Below, one piece after another: positions 3,104-36,040 of a stretch of DNA of 64,000 nucleotides; positions within the stretch are counted from its first letter, which is position 1, and each line of letters starts with the position of its first letter. The position numbers and the translations under genes are program-made. Below the pieces are notes generated by a model. It was not told where the DNA came from, did not search any database, and saw only the letters and a program-made list of their open reading frames with translations. Source of the DNA: Escherichia phage vB_EcoM_KAW1E185; sequence record NC_054922.1, one strand, 5' to 3'.

Positions 3104-4303
3104 TTTTGTAATAATGTCAAACTGTTCTTTAAAGCAGAAGCTTGAATCTTGATGCTGATACAAAAATTCATATGCTTTTTCACGCTCACGGTCATAAAGA
3201 GCTCGGTCAGATGACAGTTCTTTAATACGTTCAAATGTTGATTCCATATCATTTTCATCAAACCAAATGATACCGCTATCATGCGAGGTCAAAGGAGTAT
3301 TATCAACACGGAATTTTAAATTTTCGCCAGTAGATTTCCAAAATACCGGAATTGTTCCACATGCACCAAGCTCGAGATGAGTATATTCTAAAGAGCGCTG
3401 TAGATATTTTTTATCCAACTTACTCAACTGATAACCAAATCCGGATTTACTCATACGTTCAAGCATTTCGTTATTTACATAACGATCGAGAATTTGCGTT
3501 GGTAAATTAGGAGCAATTTTAATTTGGTCTACTTGATGAAGACGATAATACTCGTATGGAATTCCTTTTTCTTTAATAGGAATGAACGCTGGAGAACGTT
3601 CCAGACCTTCCATAATAGTACTTAGTCCTGCAGGTTTAAGATGTTTTTCATGAAAATCAAACATCTGATAAAAACCTTTCCATGTAGTCGTACGACCAAT
3701 CCAACGGTTGATATTCATGTTAATTTCAGAAACATCTTTCCAGTAGGTTGACCGAACCTTCGCAATATCCATAGGAGGCTGAAAGTTATATACTGTCGGT
3801 GCTTCTTCAATATCATCAAACAGAGAAACTGTTTCAGGATACCATTCTTTCATCAGAACTTTATTAAAATCACCATTATCAGAATGGCTAAAAATAACAT
3901 CAGCTCGACGAACAGTTTCTTCTAATCCCAAATTTCGGCGCAAAGAAAGAGAAGAATGGTCATGTTGATAAACTACAACACGAACAGAAGGTTTAATGTT
4001 ATCAATAATTTTTTTATAGTTATTAATAGTGTCTTCTTCAACCGAAGTAGCAGGAACTGAATTGATAATTAGAATATCACAATCATTTACCAGCTTAAGT
4101 GTTTTATCGTATTCTTTTGCCAATAAAACCGGAATTGAAAATGATTTATAATCATGTGCACAGTTACGAGTAAATGATTTATCTTTAGCATAAACCAAAG
4201 TTACTTCATGACCATTTTTAATAAACCAATCACGTTGCTCGAGCGAGAATTTTGTTACACCACAACCTTCAAGACCTCGAGCCATAAAAATACATACTTT
4301 CAT
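3101..4303 (-). CDS. a-gt: DNA alpha-glucosyltransferase
   Basis: 400 aa, same length as T4 a-gt; position between 47 and 55. Confidence 0.85.
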   Translation of the reverse strand: MKVCIFMARGLEGCGVTKFSLEQRDWFIKNGHEVTLVYAKDKSFTRNCAHDYKSFSIPVLLAKEYDKTLKLVNDCDILIINSVPATSVEEDTINNYKKIIDNIKPSVRVVVYQHDHSSLSLRRNLGLEETVRRADVIFSHSDNGDFNKVLMKEWYPETVSLFDDIEEAPTVYNFQPPMDIAKVRSTYWKDVSEINMNINRWIGRTTTWKGFYQMFDFHEKHLKPAGLSTIMEGLERSPAFIPIKEKGIPYEYYRLHQVDQIKIAPNLPTQILDRYVNNEMLERMSKSGFGYQLSKLDKKYLQRSLEYTHLELGACGTIPVFWKSTGENLKFRVDNTPLTSHDSGIIWFDENDMESTFERIKELSSDRALYDREREKAYEFLYQHQDSSFCFKEQFDIITK

Positions 4304-30421: not shown

Positions 30422-30895
30422 TTATTTGAACGATTTAACGTACTGAATAGAACCTTTACTATTCACAAAGGCAATTTTACCATTTTTGTTATACATGGTA
30501 GCAGTACGTTGATAGCCATAAGTTTGTTTACCAGATTGATAACCAACTAATGCGAAATTATCTTCACCCATTTTATTCTGCTTAGCACGAATGCGTTCAT
30601 GACCATGTGCCATAAGAACCTTAGCATCACCAGTTGCAATGGATCTACGAGTTTTTTCATCTTCAACTGTATTAACAAAGTCGTCAAATGAATCAAATTT
30701 AGCATGAGATTTATTATACAGTTTTCCATCTACTGCATAATTATATCCTTGTACATCCATCTCAACTTCTGTACCATCATCCAGTACAGCAGTGATTTTC
30801 TGTCCTTTTTTAAATTTCAAAAGATCAGTAAAAGATTCAGCAATAATTTGAGAATTAATAGCTGCTTCAGTAATAAATTCTTGATATGTTTTCAT
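30422..30895 (-). CDS. Internal-protein-like capsid-targeted protein (157 aa)
   Basis: N-terminal MKTYQEFITEA resembles the T4 internal-protein capsid targeting sequence. Confidence 0.6.
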   Translation of the reverse strand: MKTYQEFITEAAINSQIIAESFTDLLKFKKGQKITAVLDDGTEVEMDVQGYNYAVDGKLYNKSHAKFDSFDDFVNTVEDEKTRRSIATGDAKVLMAHGHERIRAKQNKMGEDNFALVGYQSGKQTYGYQRTATMYNKNGKIAFVNSKGSIQYVKSFK

Positions 30896-30954
30896 GTGTA
30901 TCCTTTAAATGTAAATATTTTAATTAATAATTTATCTCTTCAAGTAACTGTGAA

Positions 30955-30984
30955 TATACTATCACAATTCTAGGAGAAAGTAAA
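30955..30984 (-). promoter_or_regulatory. Early promoter
   Basis: Minus strand TTTACT - 17 nt - TAGTAT. Confidence 0.55.
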
Positions 30985-30989
30985 CAACT

Positions 30990-31520
<531 letters not shown>

Positions 31521-31961
31521 TTAAAAGAGGTTGTTCATTATTCGGTAAAGTGAAGGACCCATCACATATTGCCACTGAGTACGAGGAATAAGAGCAAAAG
31601 CGTCCATCTCTGGAATCATAACGCCATCTTTATTTTCAAAATAAGACTCGCAATGGCAATTTCTGAACATCTCATGCTCTACTGGAATCGTATAATAAAA
31701 TAACTGTAAGTCTTTATTACTAGAATATTTAAATACACCTAGGTCTTCTAGAAGGTCTGGATTATAATTGCTAAAACCGGTCTCTTCTAAACATTCTCTT
31801 CGTGCTGCATCTAATGCGCTCAAATCAGAACATTCTACACGACCTTTTGGAATATCCCAGCGATGTGCCATCATTCCAGGCTTACGAGAACCAGTAACTC
31901 GTCCCATAAATAAATCTTTATCTTCTGTCATAAAGATAATACCAGCTGATAATGTTTTCAT
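31521..31961 (-). CDS. nudE: Nudix hydrolase NudE (start taken at internal ATG; ORF track 31521-31976)
   Basis: Nudix box GRVECSDLSALDAARRECLEETGF; SD AGGAAA and ATGA overlap favour the ATG at 31961. Confidence 0.8.
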   Translation of the reverse strand: MKTLSAGIIFMTEDKDLFMGRVTGSRKPGMMAHRWDIPKGRVECSDLSALDAARRECLEETGFSNYNPDLLEDLGVFKYSSNKDLQLFYYTIPVEHEMFRNCHCESYFENKDGVMIPEMDAFALIPRTQWQYVMGPSLYRIMNNLF

Positions 31962-32446
31962 TTTAATTTCCTGCATTCAGTGATAAAGCTATTTAAATTT
32001 TGGGTATATTTCTTTTCATCAAAAATCTTTTGTTGTCTGCGTAAACGCCATGGCATTTCAATGAACGTGTACCATATCCCAGATAGTATTGCTGCTGTAA
32101 AAATATTAACAAGTATGGTTAAAATAATCCAATCTCCCGTTCTGTCTACTGGACTTTCTCCAAAGAAGCAAAATACAAATGATGTCACAGGAAAACTAAT
32201 AATGTACCACAGAATCATAATTTTATCTGTGAACCAATCAGCGTTCGTTAATTTAGCGCGACCATTATGAATACACACGAATTTATCATCTGTTGCAGTA
32301 GATGGCTTAGCTGCTTGATATCCCATTCTAAACTCCCTAATCAACAAATTTTTCATATCTTCGGAACAACCATTCCAGTCAACTCTATCAACTGAAATGC
32401 CATCATCCCCATCATCTAAATCATACCAGCGAGTTTTTAAAATCAT
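31958..32446 (-). CDS. Membrane protein paralog M1 (162 aa, 2 TM)
   Basis: Two hydrophobic segments then WRLRRQQK and C-terminal ECRKLK. Confidence 0.5.
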   Translation of the reverse strand: MILKTRWYDLDDGDDGISVDRVDWNGCSEDMKNLLIREFRMGYQAAKPSTATDDKFVCIHNGRAKLTNADWFTDKIMILWYIISFPVTSFVFCFFGESPVDRTGDWIILTILVNIFTAAILSGIWYTFIEMPWRLRRQQKIFDEKKYTQNLNSFITECRKLK

Positions 32447-32805
32447 TTAATTTTCCTACAATCACTCACAAACTCTTCCATTGATTCTTTTTCAATATAA
32501 GACATGTAGCTATTATATTCCTTTAATTGTATTTTGTAATCCTTTTTTCTTTGCCAATTTATTTTAAAATTATCATAATGAAAATATAACATTGTACCAA
32601 AGAATGAAAATAATGAAATAATTTTAGTATAGTGAAGTTCACTCCAAACTTCTATTATATTTACTGTGCCGTCAATGTTTAAAATAAGACAGTCAATTAA
32701 CAATCCAAAAAGACTACCCGCAAGAGCTGCAGCCAACGCCACAGCAAAAATTAAAAATGACTCAGGAAGCGAATATTTGACTTTATTTAGTTTTGGCTTT
32801 TGCAT
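32443..32805 (-). CDS. Membrane protein paralog M2 (120 aa, 2 TM)
   Basis: Two TM segments then WQRKKDYK and C-terminal DCRKIK. Confidence 0.5.
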   Translation of the reverse strand: MQKPKLNKVKYSLPESFLIFAVALAAALAGSLFGLLIDCLILNIDGTVNIIEVWSELHYTKIISLFSFFGTMLYFHYDNFKINWQRKKDYKIQLKEYNSYMSYIEKESMEEFVSDCRKIK

Positions 32806-33200
32806 CGTGATTCCTTAACAAATTTCATAATTTCATCAAATTCATACGCAGCAAGTTTAAGCTGATGTTCCTTTTTAATCTTTTTACACTGTGCTTTCCA
32901 ATCACGTACGCGTTTACGATAATGCCTTCCTTGATACCAGTATCCTACCCAATTTACAGGTATTAATAAAAATGGAACTATCATTGGAAGAATTAATGTT
33001 GACGCAAATATTATATTAGATTCAATATCAGTCATAACATCTATAACTATTCCAACCCCCAGTAGAATTACAAATGATACAGCTATTACAGGACCTATTA
33101 ATACATCAGTAGAAATTATCTGACGCTTTAATTCATACTTCAACGGTTTACTTGGAAGGTATAGTGATGGTTTTGACATATTCTCTACATTCCTTAACAA
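32787..33200 (-). CDS. Membrane protein paralog M3 (137 aa, 2 TM; start uncertain)
   Basis: Two TM segments then RHYRKRVRDWK and C-terminal ESRCK. Confidence 0.5.
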   Translation of the reverse strand: MLRNVENMSKPSLYLPSKPLKYELKRQIISTDVLIGPVIAVSFVILLGVGIVIDVMTDIESNIIFASTLILPMIVPFLLIPVNWVGYWYQGRHYRKRVRDWKAQCKKIKKEHQLKLAAYEFDEIMKFVKESRCKSQN

Positions 33201-33756
33201 ATTTTTCTAATAATAAATCGCTTTCAAAATTGGGATTTTCTACGAATTTATCAAAAAGATCATCAACAATAGTTAAGATATTCTTTTTACTAAGAATACG
33301 TTTATTTTCATGCTTCGTTTCAGAATCAACTATAAGAGTAAAGAAATATTTCTTGCCCTGAAATTTTACAGTAGTATCAATATAGAATAAATTTGACTTT
33401 TGTAAATTACGTTTAAACCATGCATCACTTAAACTATAAACGCCAAGATAATCATAATCGTCGTTTAAATAACATACTGTCCATTCAGGAGAAATGAAAT
33501 CAGTAAATTCAACATCAAAATCGCATGTTAATAAATGAATTGATTCAATACTGTTAATAAGTATTCCAGGACGTATTAAAGACTTTTTACCTCTAGAAAA
33601 TCTTCCAGAAAGGCTTTCATCAGTTTCATATGAAGAACCCCAATAATAATTACGTCCTTCTGCCATACGTTTAAGAGCATTTAATAATTGGTCTGGAACA
33701 TCAACTTGTCTTTGGAATTCTTCAAACATTGAATTGAAATCACTTTGCATTCTCAT
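33148..33756 (-). CDS. Hypothetical protein (202 aa)
   Basis: ORF track; C-terminus FVKECREYVK overlaps next gene start. Confidence 0.5.
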   Translation of the reverse strand: MRMQSDFNSMFEEFQRQVDVPDQLLNALKRMAEGRNYYWGSSYETDESLSGRFSRGKKSLIRPGILINSIESIHLLTCDFDVEFTDFISPEWTVCYLNDDYDYLGVYSLSDAWFKRNLQKSNLFYIDTTVKFQGKKYFFTLIVDSETKHENKRILSKKNILTIVDDLFDKFVENPNFESDLLLEKFVKECREYVKTITIPSK

Positions 33757-33797
33757 TCCTATTTACTCCAAGTAATAGGGGTCGAAGCCCCTTATCA

Positions 33798-34391
33798 TTA
33801 TTTCAGAGAATTAATATATTCCTGAACATCGGCAGAGGTGGTTTCAACCCCAGAAATATTACCGTTAAAGGTTTCAACTCGAGCAAGAGTATCTTCAATA
33901 TCAACCTTAGTCAGCGCTGCAATTTCAACTACATCATCGGCAGTACTAATTCCAAGGGCATTCGCTGCACGAGTTTCACGGATATATTCCAATTTAACTG
34001 CAAGTTCTTGGCGAGCATCATCTAACTCAACTACTTTCTTGGCGATTTCAATTCGCATTTCAGCATAACCATCAGCTTTAGTAGTCAACTGCTCAGCTGT
34101 TCGACGATATAGTAAACCAAGTTTAGCATGCATTGTTACATCTTGACCTTCAGAAAGAAGCTTGCGAATTTCACGCTCTTTTGATTCAGCCTGTTTATTC
34201 TTTTCAATAACAAGTTCACGAATACGTTTTTCTTCATTAATAGATTTAACAGAAGCAGTTTTTAGATCTTTAATTTTATCAAGCAATTTTGCTGCTGCGG
34301 CAGTATACTGCTCTTCAACAGATAGATTTTTAGCCATAGCAGAACCAAGTTTAGTGCGAATAAACTCAACAATTTTCTTCAGTGTGTTCAT
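33798..34391 (-). CDS. Coiled-coil protein (197 aa), PspA/IM30-like architecture (speculative)
   Basis: Long heptad-rich, Ala/Glu/Lys/Arg-rich helices throughout. Confidence 0.45.
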
Positions 34392-34679
34392 AGTATTTCC
34401 TTAGGTTAATTAAGATTTAAAATCCATGAGAGTATTATACTCCGGATAGTTTGTAAACTATTTCAACATCGCCTTTTGCTGCTTTATAACCTTCAGCCCA
34501 AGATATAACCGAGTTTTTATCTGAAGATTCAAATTCTGGCATTGGGCTTTCGCCAATGTTCACACAATATGTTTCTTCATTTTCGTCAAACCAAATAATT
34601 AAAGTAGTCATTTATTTCTCCGTTTCTGTATTTGTTTTGATAAGTCTATAATAACACCGTCCTTGGTGTTTGTACACAA

Positions 34680-34955
34680 TTATTTCATATTATTGAAATA
34701 TTCTTCTGCGATTTCATCGTTATCATGGTAAACTTTAGAAGACAGTTTAACATAACCTTCTGCCGTGAACATATTAATCACAACCTTTACAGTATACCAC
34801 TGACCATCTTCATTACCCATTACTGCGTAAGTTTCAAACATCGGATGATCAGGACCGATAACTTTAATATCATTCACTGTACGACCAAAATCTTCTGAAA
34901 CACATTTCATAAAGAAGTTGAACAGTTCGCCGTAATTATCCATTTCATTCTCCAA
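34680..34955 (-). CDS. Hypothetical acidic protein (91 aa)
   Basis: ORF track; downstream of early promoter. Confidence 0.5.
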   Translation of the reverse strand: MENEMDNYGELFNFFMKCVSEDFGRTVNDIKVIGPDHPMFETYAVMGNEDGQWYTVKVVINMFTAEGYVKLSSKVYHDNDEIAEEYFNNMK

Positions 34956-34986
34956 GTTGTTTTCTGTATCAGTAGTTGATAGTTGT

Positions 34987-35015
34987 ATAGTACCATGGAA
35001 GAACGGGGATGTAAA
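34987..35015 (-). promoter_or_regulatory. Early promoter
   Basis: Minus strand TTTACA - 17 nt - TACTAT then ACAACTATC. Confidence 0.6.
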
Positions 35016-35137: not shown

Positions 35138-35166
35138 GGCCTAGATACCAAAAAGCCCCAACCGAA
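35138..35166 (-). terminator. Intrinsic terminator downstream of internal-protein gene
   Basis: Minus strand GCCCCAACC-UUUC-GGUUGGGGC followed by UUUUUGG. Confidence 0.75.
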
Positions 35167-35184
35167 AGGTTGGGGCTAAGAATG

Positions 35185-35658
35185 TTATTTGATTTGTTTA
35201 GCAGACCAAATGCGGTCTTTGATAATTTTTTGGATGTCTTCAACATATTCAAGAGAGTGAACATGTGGGTTATCTTTGAAACTATAAGCACGAGCTAGCT
35301 TTTGGCCTTCAGTTTTGATTACTAAAAGCTCTTTAAGGATAGCTTCATATTTGGAGATAATTCCTTTAACGATATTTTTCTCTTGTGTGACTTTAGGATC
35401 TGCTTTAGGAGCAGGTTTACCCGAAGCCTTTGCAAAAGCAGCGCCAGTAGCAACTAAACTTTTCCAGGCCATACTAACTGCATTCCCTGTAAATCCTTCG
35501 GCTTTCATATCACGAGCAAATTGGAATCGTGATTCATCGGAAGCATCTTTATAGGAATATTTACCCGCGGCAATGGCTGCTTTTGCGACAGCTTGAATTT
35601 CGGTGCTAGATGCTTCATTTAACACCGCTTCATTTAAAAATTGAGCATATGATTTCAT
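35185..35658 (-). CDS. Internal protein III-like capsid-targeted protein (157 aa from MKSYAQF)
   Basis: SD AGGAAA before ATG 35658; N-terminus MKSYAQFLNEA resembles the capsid targeting sequence; ORF-track 216-aa form overruns terminator and late promoter. Confidence 0.6.
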   Translation of the reverse strand: MKSYAQFLNEAVLNEASSTEIQAVAKAAIAAGKYSYKDASDESRFQFARDMKAEGFTGNAVSMAWKSLVATGAAFAKASGKPAPKADPKVTQEKNIVKGIISKYEAILKELLVIKTEGQKLARAYSFKDNPHVHSLEYVEDIQKIIKDRIWSAKQIK

Positions 35659-35696
35659 CTTATTTCCTGTTTTAATTTGTAGATTTAATATACTAA

Positions 35697-35704
35697 TATT
35701 TATA
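35697..35704 (-). promoter_or_regulatory. T4 late promoter
   Basis: Plus tatttata = minus TATAAATA, ~40 nt upstream of ATG. Confidence 0.6.
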
Positions 35705-35733
35705 CCAAAAAGCCCCAACCTTTCGGTCGGGGC
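35705..35733 (-). terminator. Intrinsic terminator ending the tRNA/stable-RNA transcription unit
   Basis: Minus strand GCCCCGACC-GAAA-GGUUGGGGC followed by UUUUUGG. Confidence 0.75.
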
Positions 35734-35744
35734 TAAGCCTTGCG

Positions 35745-36040
35745 GCAACCTTGTCGGGGTTCCACCTGCTAAGGCAAGTGTTTGTACGAAACGCCGGGAT
35801 TCGAACCCGGTTATTAAGTAGTTGACGCTACTCAATATTTTTAAAAGGCCATATCTCGACCATATCCGAACGTTCCGTCAAAAACGCTACTCGGCTTACG
35901 GCAAAGATATTTCCTCGAATCGATAATTCGGTGCGCCGTTTCTGCTGTGATGTAAGAGGGCATCAATAAACGCAAAGATTATTAACGCAATTCCTTACTC
36001 AGGGAACATCAGTCCGACGACTTACCGGTAGCGACCCGGT
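35745..36040 (-). ncRNA. Putative stable structured RNA(s) downstream of tRNA cluster (possible analogue of T4 species 1/2 RNAs)
   Basis: No credible ORF; tRNA-like T-arm CCGGGUUCGAAUCCCGG near 35795-35811 and several further stems; boundaries approximate. Confidence 0.35.

Follow-up and report, generated by a model that had tools for sequence, protein, structure and literature searches.

In the 64,000-nucleotide stretch of Escherichia phage vB_EcoM_KAW1E185 that we analysed (NC_054922.1; hereafter the window), four consecutive genes, e.5, e.4, e.3 and e.2, encode small proteins that end in variants of one short peptide, F-[I/V]-x-x-C-R. Codon comparison among T4-like genera showed that this core is constrained at the amino-acid level. 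The ribosome-binding site (RBS) of the following gene is written over the motif or beside it, since each gene ends where the next begins. Taken together, we consider it probable that these are known T4 accessory genes, three of them for membrane proteins, with a protein-level tail motif that carries the next RBS, that their repeated junctions have taken part in recombination, and that the tail has a putative docking role.

The window belongs to a Tequatrovirus (T4-like), and its bases 30900-34500 showed 96-97% DNA identity to RB3, RB5 and RB14, 98% to teqdroes and 92% to T4. The gene order e.6-e.5-e.4-e.3-e.2-nudE-e matched the RB14 and T4 annotation, with all genes on the minus strand. The genes e.5 (33148-33756; soluble product; phrog_2607, E = 2e-109), e.4 (32787-33179; 130 amino acids (aa); phrog_2604, E = 1e-69), e.3 (32443-32805; 120 aa; phrog_2330, E = 2e-60), e.2 (31958-32446; 162 aa; phrog_2203, E = 6e-79) and nudE form an unbroken chain without gaps (e.5>e.4>e.3>e.2>nudE), with overlaps of 32, 19, 4 and 4 nt. 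The PHROG profile matches were full-length and significant for all four of e.2-e.5 (E ~1e-60 to 1e-109), and precomputed assignments on homologues placed e.4 in PF26873 and e.2 in PF26896. Database homologues were 80-100% identical, with up to 100% protein identity in other Tequatroviruses. The T4 record labels e.2, e.3 and e.4 "conserved hypothetical, predicted membrane protein", and the older T4 record L13089.1 names the series msp1-msp8, with e.5 as msp4, e.4 as msp5, e.3 as msp6 and e.2 as msp7. The genes e.2-e.4, together with e.5, are T4 accessory orphan genes that are already catalogued and lie in overlapping early cistrons.

The sequence-only reading of this DNA had picked out three tandem membrane proteins, M1, M2 and M3 (e.2, e.3 and e.4), and an upstream 202-aa gene (e.5). 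All four open reading frames (ORFs) were found on the minus strand, with 162, 120, 137 or 130, and 202 aa, respectively. Two details of that reading did not hold. It had placed the start of e.4 at TTG 33200 (137 aa); the real start is almost certainly ATG 33179 (130 aa), as in the RB14 and T4 annotation. It had also ended e.5 at FVKECREYVK; e.5 runs 11 residues past the motif, to TITIPSK.

A C-terminal motif on e.2 to e.5

To follow the motif, we compared the homologous region from 15 Tequatroviruses and four other genera (five T4-like genera in all), namely Mosigvirus (phage 55, phiC120 and three metagenomic contigs), Dhakavirus (JS98 and E33), Gaprivervirus (VR26) and Kanagawavirus (PEi20). 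The core F-[IV]-x-x-C-R was kept in e.2, e.3 and e.5 across all five genera, and e.4 had S, I or V at the Cys position. In the window the motif was C-terminal in only 4 of 323 ORFs, which were e.5, e.4, e.3 and e.2. A complete 168-kb Tequatrovirus genome had the strict pattern F[IVL]..C[RK] at three C-termini (e.5, e.3 and e.2) and at two other places in 68,252 ORF residues. These two counts show that the motif is not a chance occurrence. In eight loci of the four other genera, 19 of the 20 occurrences of [FY][IVL]..C[RK] were within 16 residues of the C-terminus.

Conservation within each family pointed to the same residues. Among e.2 orthologues that are only 18-45% identical, F154, I155, C158 and R159 made up four of the eight invariant columns. 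The e.3 alignment showed the same behaviour, and e.3 and a Mosigvirus 101-aa two-helix protein aligned on the F..C block. A profile hidden Markov model (HMM) of e.2 was run against 1.84 billion representative proteins and gave 15 matches, all T4-like, so the search offered no distant relatives that could inform function; every full-length family member ended in FIxxCR[KN]. Within Tequatrovirus, the e.2 motif had a synonymous polymorphism (pS) of 0.149 and a nonsynonymous polymorphism (pN) of 0.014.

The carriers of the motif were of both kinds, membrane proteins (e.2, e.3, e.4 and the Mosigvirus 101-aa protein) and soluble proteins (e.5, JS98 orf124 and PEi20 ORF-137). Outside e.2-e.5, the peptide thus closed at least three small proteins encoded in this hyperplastic region of other T4-like genera.

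Two other explanations for the conserved residues were examined and rejected. The pattern [IV]-x-E is the consensus of the gp21 prohead protease. A gp21 site was ruled out, as orthologues have G, M, Q, N or D in place of the E. The Cys might also have been kept because GAA-TGY creates an out-of-frame ATG, which applies to e.4, where it is the e.3 start, and to the long form of nudE alone; in the remaining motif genes the out-of-frame ATG runs straight into a stop.

Ribosome-binding sites at the junctions

A Shine-Dalgarno sequence (SD; AAGGAA or AGGAAA) was found 6-10 nt upstream of the start codon, inside the preceding gene, at all four junctions. At the e.3/e.2 and e.2/nudE junctions AGGAAA lies 6-7 nt ahead of the overlapping ATG. 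The e.3 tail, TTT GTG AGT GAT TGT AGG AAA ATT AAA TGA (F-V-S-D-C-R-K-I-K-stop; 32443-32472, minus strand, as for all junction elements), holds the SD at 32452-32457 and the e.2 ATG at 32444-32446 in an ATGA overlap with the stop codon. The e.2 tail, TTT ATC ACT GAA TGC AGG AAA TTA AAA TGA (F-I-T-E-C-R-K-L-K-stop; 31958-31987), holds the SD at 31967-31972 and the nudE ATG at 31959-31961, again in an ATGA overlap. The e.5 motif, TTT GTT AAG GAA TGT AGA (F-V-K-E-C-R; 33184-33201), contains the likely e.4 SD, AAGGAA. The same hexamer in the e.4 motif, TTT GTT AAG GAA TCA CGA (F-V-K-E-S-R; 32805-32822), is the e.3 SD, and the e.4 CGA-TGC codons hold the e.3 ATG (32803-32805). The junction codons given earlier for CRK(L/I)K, AGGAAA plus ATGA, were as described for e.3 and e.2; in e.4 and e.5 the SD is the AAGGAA of the Lys-Glu codons.

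Where the end of one gene is also the start of the next, the next RBS overlies or adjoins the motif. The SD is drawn from the middle codons (AAG GAA, GAG GAA or AAA GGA) or, in Tequatrovirus, from the Arg-Lys codons AGG AAA, and the last sense codon, usually AAA, gives the A of the ATGA start/stop overlap.

Such an arrangement could mean that the shared peptide is functionless and arises from the SD, spacer and ATGA of the next gene, which we regard as very unlikely. The string AGG AAA xTx AAA TGA does read alike as R-K-[I/L]-K-stop and as an SD, an A/U spacer and ATGA. The SD codons AGG AAA were invariant in 12-15 Tequatrovirus genomes, with the neighbouring F, V, E, C and I codons varying silently, and the last 14 codons of e.4, which contain the e.3 SD and start, showed no synonymous polymorphism against a background of 27% silent columns (p ~0.02). 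The middle residues of the motif varied as K-E, E-E, K-G, T-E and S-D. Where the DNA was read, the codons for K-E, E-E and K-G were SD-like and purine-rich (AAGGAA, GAGGAA and AAAGGA), and T-E and S-D occurred where the SD has moved to R-K. Lys was also enriched at other ATGA junctions. Neighbouring genes are no more than 25 nt apart at about 49 junctions of the window, 15 of them ATGA overlaps, and six of these 15 end in Lys (AAA-TGA). On the other hand, the C-termini at the 45 other tight junctions were unrelated and none had the motif peptide. An SD needs only 4-6 nt, and the conserved F, I/V, C and R flank it on both sides.

The codons used in other genera contradicted this explanation more directly. 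Arg was encoded by five codons from both codon families: AGG in Tequatrovirus e.2 and e.3 and Mosigvirus e.2, AGA in e.5 and in Mosigvirus e.3 and e.4, CGA in Tequatrovirus e.4, the 101-aa protein and PEi20 e.2, CGT in JS98 and VR26 e.2 and in VR26 e.4 and e.5, and CGC in PEi20 e.5. Cys was encoded by TGT or TGC and Phe by TTT or TTC. The SD itself took different positions in the motif. It lay on R-K (AGGAAA) in Tequatrovirus e.2 and e.3, on K-E (AAGGAA) in Mosigvirus, Dhakavirus and Gaprivervirus e.3, in e.4 and in Tequatrovirus e.5, on E-E (GAGGAA) in Dhakavirus and Gaprivervirus e.2, on K-G (AAAGGA) in PEi20 e.2, and on R-G (CGAGGA) in the Mosigvirus 101-aa protein. In three genes it lay outside the motif: seven codons further on, in K-E-V codons, in VR26 e.5; about 30 nt downstream in PEi20 e.5; and in JS98 orf124, where the next gene follows a 44-nt spacer with its own SD. 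The motif was kept although the next start was 20-45 nt downstream or past an intergenic gap.

Because five Arg codons are used and the SD position slides, even off the motif, F, I/V, C and R are under constraint as amino acids. Judged from these alignments, the tail is dual-coded, with F, I/V, C and R held at the protein level and the middle codons, the Tequatrovirus R-K and the terminal K set by the RBS. The sequence-only reading had described the shared tail as at least partly a consequence of coupling signals, and this stands for the middle pair, the Tequatrovirus R-K and the final K but not for F, I/V, C and R. In this naturally dual-coded tail, the constraint from the protein and that from the RBS can be told apart codon by codon.

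Translational coupling along e.5-nudE would be expected from overlaps of 4 to 32 nt. The ATGA overlaps at e.3/e.2 and e.2/nudE and the SD inside the upstream ORF resemble those of the coupled overlapping cistrons common in T4 early operons. In contrast to these, the SD at e.2-e.5 overlies a conserved peptide that recurs in successive genes. Overlapping and coupled cistrons are routine in T4, and the detail added here is small but usable, a lead rather than a surprise.

Junction repeats and recombination

The 16-mer AAATTTGTTAAGGAAT was present in two identical copies on the minus strand, at the e.5/e.4 junction (33189-33204) and the e.4/e.3 junction (32810-32825), and nowhere else in the window. 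The first codons of e.4 and e.3, which follow AAATTTGTTAAGGAAT, were similar (shared head MxKPxL). The e.3/e.2 and e.2/nudE junctions both contained GAWTGYAGGAAAWTWAAATGA.

In three genomes (the IMG/VR contig L006 and phages UFV-AREG1 and ECO07P4) e.2 was precisely absent, in frame, with the crossover inside TG(C)AGGAAA. In these phages the sequence follows e.3 as far as GAT TG and e.2 from C AGG AAA TTA AAA TGA onwards, which gave a hybrid tail, FV[S/I]DCRKLK, and retained the ATGA overlap with nudE. The repeated junction DNA has acted as microhomology, and recombination there has deleted e.2 exactly in several natural phages. The e.5/e.4/e.3 series likely arose by staggered tandem duplication spanning a junction, which would have copied the upstream tail, the SD and the start; the repeat and the shared head suggest this.

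Two side observations concern the same junctions. The phiC120-type Mosigviruses (L003, ~3905-4002; L017) were without e.3 and kept its remnant ATG CAA AAG CCT GAA CTG A, which sits in the unchanged e.4 tail FVKEIRCKSLN and is followed by about 100 nt of non-coding DNA. In P0204, the 83-aa representative of a metagenomic cluster, the e.2 tail FDEKKYTQNLNNFITECRKLK followed 62 unrelated N-terminal residues. The phage-genome collection had no copy of this protein and its provenance is uncertain; it may reflect either a genuine replacement of the gene at the e.2 position or a chimeric assembly.

The repeats raise the alternative that tail, SD, start and first codons form a passive junction cassette, spread by staggered duplication or unequal crossing-over, in which the peptide is unselected. 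The identical AAATTTGTTAAGGAAT at two successive junctions, the M-x-K-P-x-L head common to e.4 and e.3 that overlaps the upstream tails, the natural crossovers within the junction repeat, the P0204 fusion and the presence of the same tail on soluble e.5 and on membrane proteins are all consistent with it. However, the e.2 and e.3 tails of one genome differed at many silent sites, and junction DNAs that differ in this way have not been homogenised recently. The residues were also kept between genera, in proteins that are 18-50% identical, despite codon switches, where drift would have erased them, and the data suggest strong site-wise purifying selection on F, C and R. We judge a purely passive cassette unlikely. 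It accounts for the origin of the tail better than for its maintenance, and is compatible with the preferred explanation of a tail constrained as protein.

Gene-boundary repeats called PeSLs have been described in T4-type hyperplastic regions, where they act as recombination points for the gain and loss of whole genes (2010, PMC2839356; Comeau et al. 2014, PMC4122927). The excision of e.2 resembles this, being exact between two junction repeats with endpoints in TG(C)AGGAAA in three genomes. However, PeSLs are intergenic promoter/terminator elements, and the e.2-e.5 repeats are coding (C-terminal codons plus RBS) and 9-16 nt long. The e.2-e.5 junctions had no intergenic DNA, promoter or stem-loop, and the recombinants stay in frame with the tail peptide. 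Coding junction repeats of 9-16 nt, besides PeSLs, bring about the exact in-frame loss of genes in hyperplastic regions of the T4 type.

A promoter and terminator scan gave 30 promoter-like matches, no more than background at 21 ± 5 in shuffled sequences, and no stem-loop at the junctions. A stem-loop, GGGGCTTCGACCCC (33777-33792, minus strand), was found in the 41-nt e.6/e.5 gap; the gene chain without gaps has its upstream limit there, and the equivalent stem-loop is annotated in T4 L13089.1. An Rfam scan of window positions 30500-35000 gave no match. Further upstream, two near-identical 24-nt GC-rich hairpins followed by T-runs (minus strand), AGCCCCAACCTTTCGGTTGGGGCT and AGCCCCGACCGAAAGGTTGGGGCT at 35154-35177 and 35711-35734, flank the ORF 35185-35835 and are candidates for PeSL-type terminator/promoter cassettes.

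Membrane proteins, their kinship and a possible docking role

Membrane segments were judged by Kyte-Doolittle-type hydropathy (mean KD) and charge distribution, together with AlphaFold2 (AF2) models for e.4 and e.2. Two strong hydrophobic segments each were found in e.2 and e.4 (mean KD 1.9-2.4), and e.3 had one strong segment and a marginal second at aa 62-77 (mean KD 1.32). The two hydrophobic helices per protein proposed earlier were thus confirmed for e.2 and e.4 and doubtful for the second segment of e.3, and the basic W/R-rich juxtamembrane stretches were present in all three proteins. In e.4, transmembrane segment 1 (TM1) spans aa 27-50 (33030-33101, minus strand) and TM2 aa 57-76 (32952-33011), and the tail after TM2 is basic and Trp-rich. 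In e.3, TM1 spans aa 17-40 (32686-32757) and the weaker segment maps to 32575-32622. In e.2, a 75-aa N-terminal domain precedes TM1 (aa 76-96; 32159-32221), TM2 (aa 106-129; 32060-32131) and a basic tail. In the AF2 models, e.4 had helices at 24-49, 54-108 and 111-124 (pLDDT 65, low to moderate confidence) and e.2 at 69-96 and 103-161 (pLDDT 50), with the N-terminal domain of e.2 unresolved.

In all three proteins K and R were concentrated in the N-terminus and the tail, which opens with a W/R/K-rich stretch, and the short loop was acidic. Because the ends are K/R-rich and the loop is acidic, the positive-inside rule predicts an N-in/C-in topology. From these features e.2-e.4 would be small helical-hairpin proteins of the inner membrane.

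The pN/pS ratio was 0.44-0.81 in the hairpins; the tails had 0.10-0.14, e.6 and e.5 had 0.04-0.05, and nudE had 0.13. Sharply different alleles of e.4 aa 27-56 (33012-33101), the TM1-loop region, were found between near-identical flanks (P0132 and P0135 versus the window), and the e.3 loop (window ~32670-32690) had a 4-aa insertion allele (120 versus 124 aa). This e.4/e.3 variation was mosaic, cassette-like and restricted to the membrane or periplasmic part. The high pN/pS and the allele-like swaps of the TM1-loop (e.g. P0132) point to relaxed or diversifying selection on the membrane or periplasmic face, which, if true, would suit accessory proteins facing the host or competitors.

The similarity of the three proteins to one another was concentrated at the tail. 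BLASTP aligned e.2 with e.3 over the 14-residue tail alone (E = 0.007), and e.3 with e.4 collinearly over the full length (21% identity, E = 0.02); e.3 also gave a weak cross-match to the e.4 PHROG. With profiles enriched by the other genera and the motif included, hhalign gave probabilities of 74-89% for e.2/e.3, e.2/101-aa, e.3/101-aa and e.3/e.4. Without the motif, comparisons among e.2, e.3, e.4 and the 101-aa protein gave 0.2-36% (E 0.02-0.37), against reversed controls of up to 38%. The lone residual signal, in the N-terminal 18 residues of e.3/e.4 (M-x-K-P-x-L...K-Y-x-L; 36%, E = 3.7e-4), equalled the best control.

These results bear on whether the proteins are paralogues, as the sequence-only reading had proposed, with loss of similarity outside the junction-encoded residues as its own refuting test. 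By that test the similarity fell to the level of reversed controls. It is conceivable, though we would not favour it, that e.2, e.3 and e.4 are unrelated two-pass proteins that came by their tail independently, through recombination or through convergence towards one partner, since hhalign without the motif did no better than reversed sequences, the e.2/e.3 match was restricted to the tail, and soluble, clearly different proteins also bear the motif. Because of those proteins the tail is no marker of whole-protein descent, and a shared tail is poor ground for inferring paralogy of small membrane proteins.

On the other hand, the order of parts was identical in e.2, e.3 and e.4: basic N-terminus, TM hairpin, W/R-rich stretch, helical tail and motif. 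The collinear e.3/e.4 alignment, the PHROG cross-match and the common N-terminal motif also point to kinship. The TM1 start of e.4 and e.2 has CCTGTGACA...TCATTTGT in common, and a natural in-register e.4::e.2 fusion, viable in the UFV05/UFV09 phage lineage, was joined at the 10-nt TM1 identity. As the hairpins evolve fast, a loss of similarity signal is expected. Paralogy is undemonstrated, yet the architecture, the e.3/e.4 N-terminal motif, the e.4::e.2 chimera and the fast-changing hairpins make it the more likely relationship.

The tail peptide might serve as a cytoplasmic C-terminal contact or docking element for one common partner. In its full form, the proposal that F-[I/V]-x-x-C-R is a docking signal tying otherwise unrelated proteins of the T4 e-tRNA hyperplastic region to one phage or host partner, with the same codons serving as RBS and recombination joint, is tentative and rather less likely to be right than wrong. 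If it were true, genes could be swapped in frame with expression and partner binding kept, a 'plug-and-play' gene end. There is an analogy among T4 proteins, as gp43, gp33 and gp55 carry C-terminal tails that bind the sliding clamp, gp45. A short conserved peptide at the extreme C-terminus of otherwise unrelated phage proteins would likewise fit a common partner. However, the sequence F-[IV]-x-x-C-R differs from the gp45-binding tails and half of its carriers are membrane proteins, so the comparison is one of analogy only.

Several observations weigh against the combined reading offered here. The motif is short and somewhat loose: e.4 is without the Cys, R is replaced by K in some e.3 orthologues, and E, D, G, M, Q, N and Y all occur as the fourth residue. 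Within one genus, where ~27% of silent sites are polymorphic, protein and RNA constraint are inseparable. RNA folding of the four junctions gave no structure beyond that of shuffled sequences (z -0.9 to +1.0) and no occluding hairpin, so any coupling would act by proximity only. Both AF2 models are of low confidence at pLDDT 65 (e.4) and 50 (e.2), and similarity outside the motif did not exceed the reversed controls. Docking of the tail to a common cytoplasmic partner is pure inference and the least secure step.

A conserved cytoplasmic C-terminal peptide would nevertheless be a testable handle on at least six protein families without a function. No description of the F-[IV]-x-x-C-R tail or of its triple use was found in the limited literature accessible to us. 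A tail of this kind across several families, used at once as peptide, RBS and recombination joint, is possibly new. The literature search found no paper on e.2-e.5, and the CRISPRi-ART T4 preprint and its supplement did not mention them.

Searches of Pfam, NCBIfam, PADLOC and PDB sequences with e.2-e.5 gave nothing meaningful. The sequence-only reading had suggested a role in exclusion or at the host membrane, and these searches gave no match to a family, a defence system or a structure that would point to one. Profiles of holin, Imm, defence and anti-defence families (Pfam, PHROGs, NCBIfam and PADLOC) gave sub-threshold, composition-type matches only, namely Adeno_E3_14_5 with 16.6 bits and Bfi1 with 18 bits against a cut-off of 100. 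Small two-pass inner-membrane proteins of phages include the superinfection immunity protein Imm of T4 and the class II holins. They resemble e.2-e.4 in size, in the N-in/C-in two-helix hairpin and in the charged C-terminal tail, and e.2-e.4 adjoin the endolysin gene e. However, e.2-e.4 showed no sequence or profile similarity to holin, Imm or defence families, and the lysis and exclusion functions of T4 are already assigned to other genes.

Many database copies of e.3 and e.4 are labelled 'sulfurtransferase' (for example P0002, P0005, P0048 and P0064; JLBYU24, Shinka and F26) and one e.3 is labelled 'DNA primase'. No rhodanese or sulfurtransferase match was found in Pfam or NCBIfam at E <= 0.1-1, and 'CRK' as a remnant of a rhodanese active site had no domain support. 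The 'DNA primase' label likewise had no Pfam or NCBIfam model behind it. These names look like propagated annotation errors.

The T4 reference record differed at e.2. In T4 AF158101.6 (L028) e.2, at 978-1447 (equivalent to window 31958-32446), there were single-base indels of -1 and +1, 67 nt apart. The out-of-frame stretch between them meets a stop, so T4 e.2 is annotated as truncated at 102 aa and followed by a 160-nt 'gap' to nudE. Either e.2 has become a pseudogene in the laboratory strain or the T4 reference record carries an old sequencing error. The same 102-aa form of e.2 was present in Yersinia phage fPS-2 (P0193). Apart from this frameshift in the reference record, against the intact 162-aa e.2 of the window, there was no difference in kind.

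The Nudix hydrolase gene nudE (31521-31961, minus strand; PF00293, E = 2e-13) is the last gene of the overlapping chain and has two candidate starts. ATG 31961, with the AGGAAA SD and the ATGA overlap, is chosen in RB14. ATG 31976, made by the e.2 Glu-Cys codons GAA-TGC and without an SD, is chosen in the T4 record. The lysozyme gene e lies beyond it at 30990-31484 (minus strand).

At the other end, e.6 (33798-34391, minus strand; 197 aa) was the most conserved gene of the cluster, with ~88% identity between genera and a pN/pS of 0.04. It had no match to a Pfam, NCBIfam or PDB family. By eye the protein appeared all-helical and coiled-coil-like, with a resemblance to PspA/IM30-type proteins. 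Some records call it 'host specificity protein', a label with no visible support.

Mosig-, Dhaka-, Gapriver- and Kanagawaviruses had a second tandem family in the corresponding region, absent from the window, of three to six small soluble paralogues (L002 2867-3661; L022 147-935 and 1165-1389; L023 509-1777; L024 229-1303 and 1643-1843; L025 534-1573). Its members ended in W-[VI]-S-S-S-x-x-C-stop, mostly followed by TAA-GGAAAnnnnATG, in which the stop codon is fused to the next SD.

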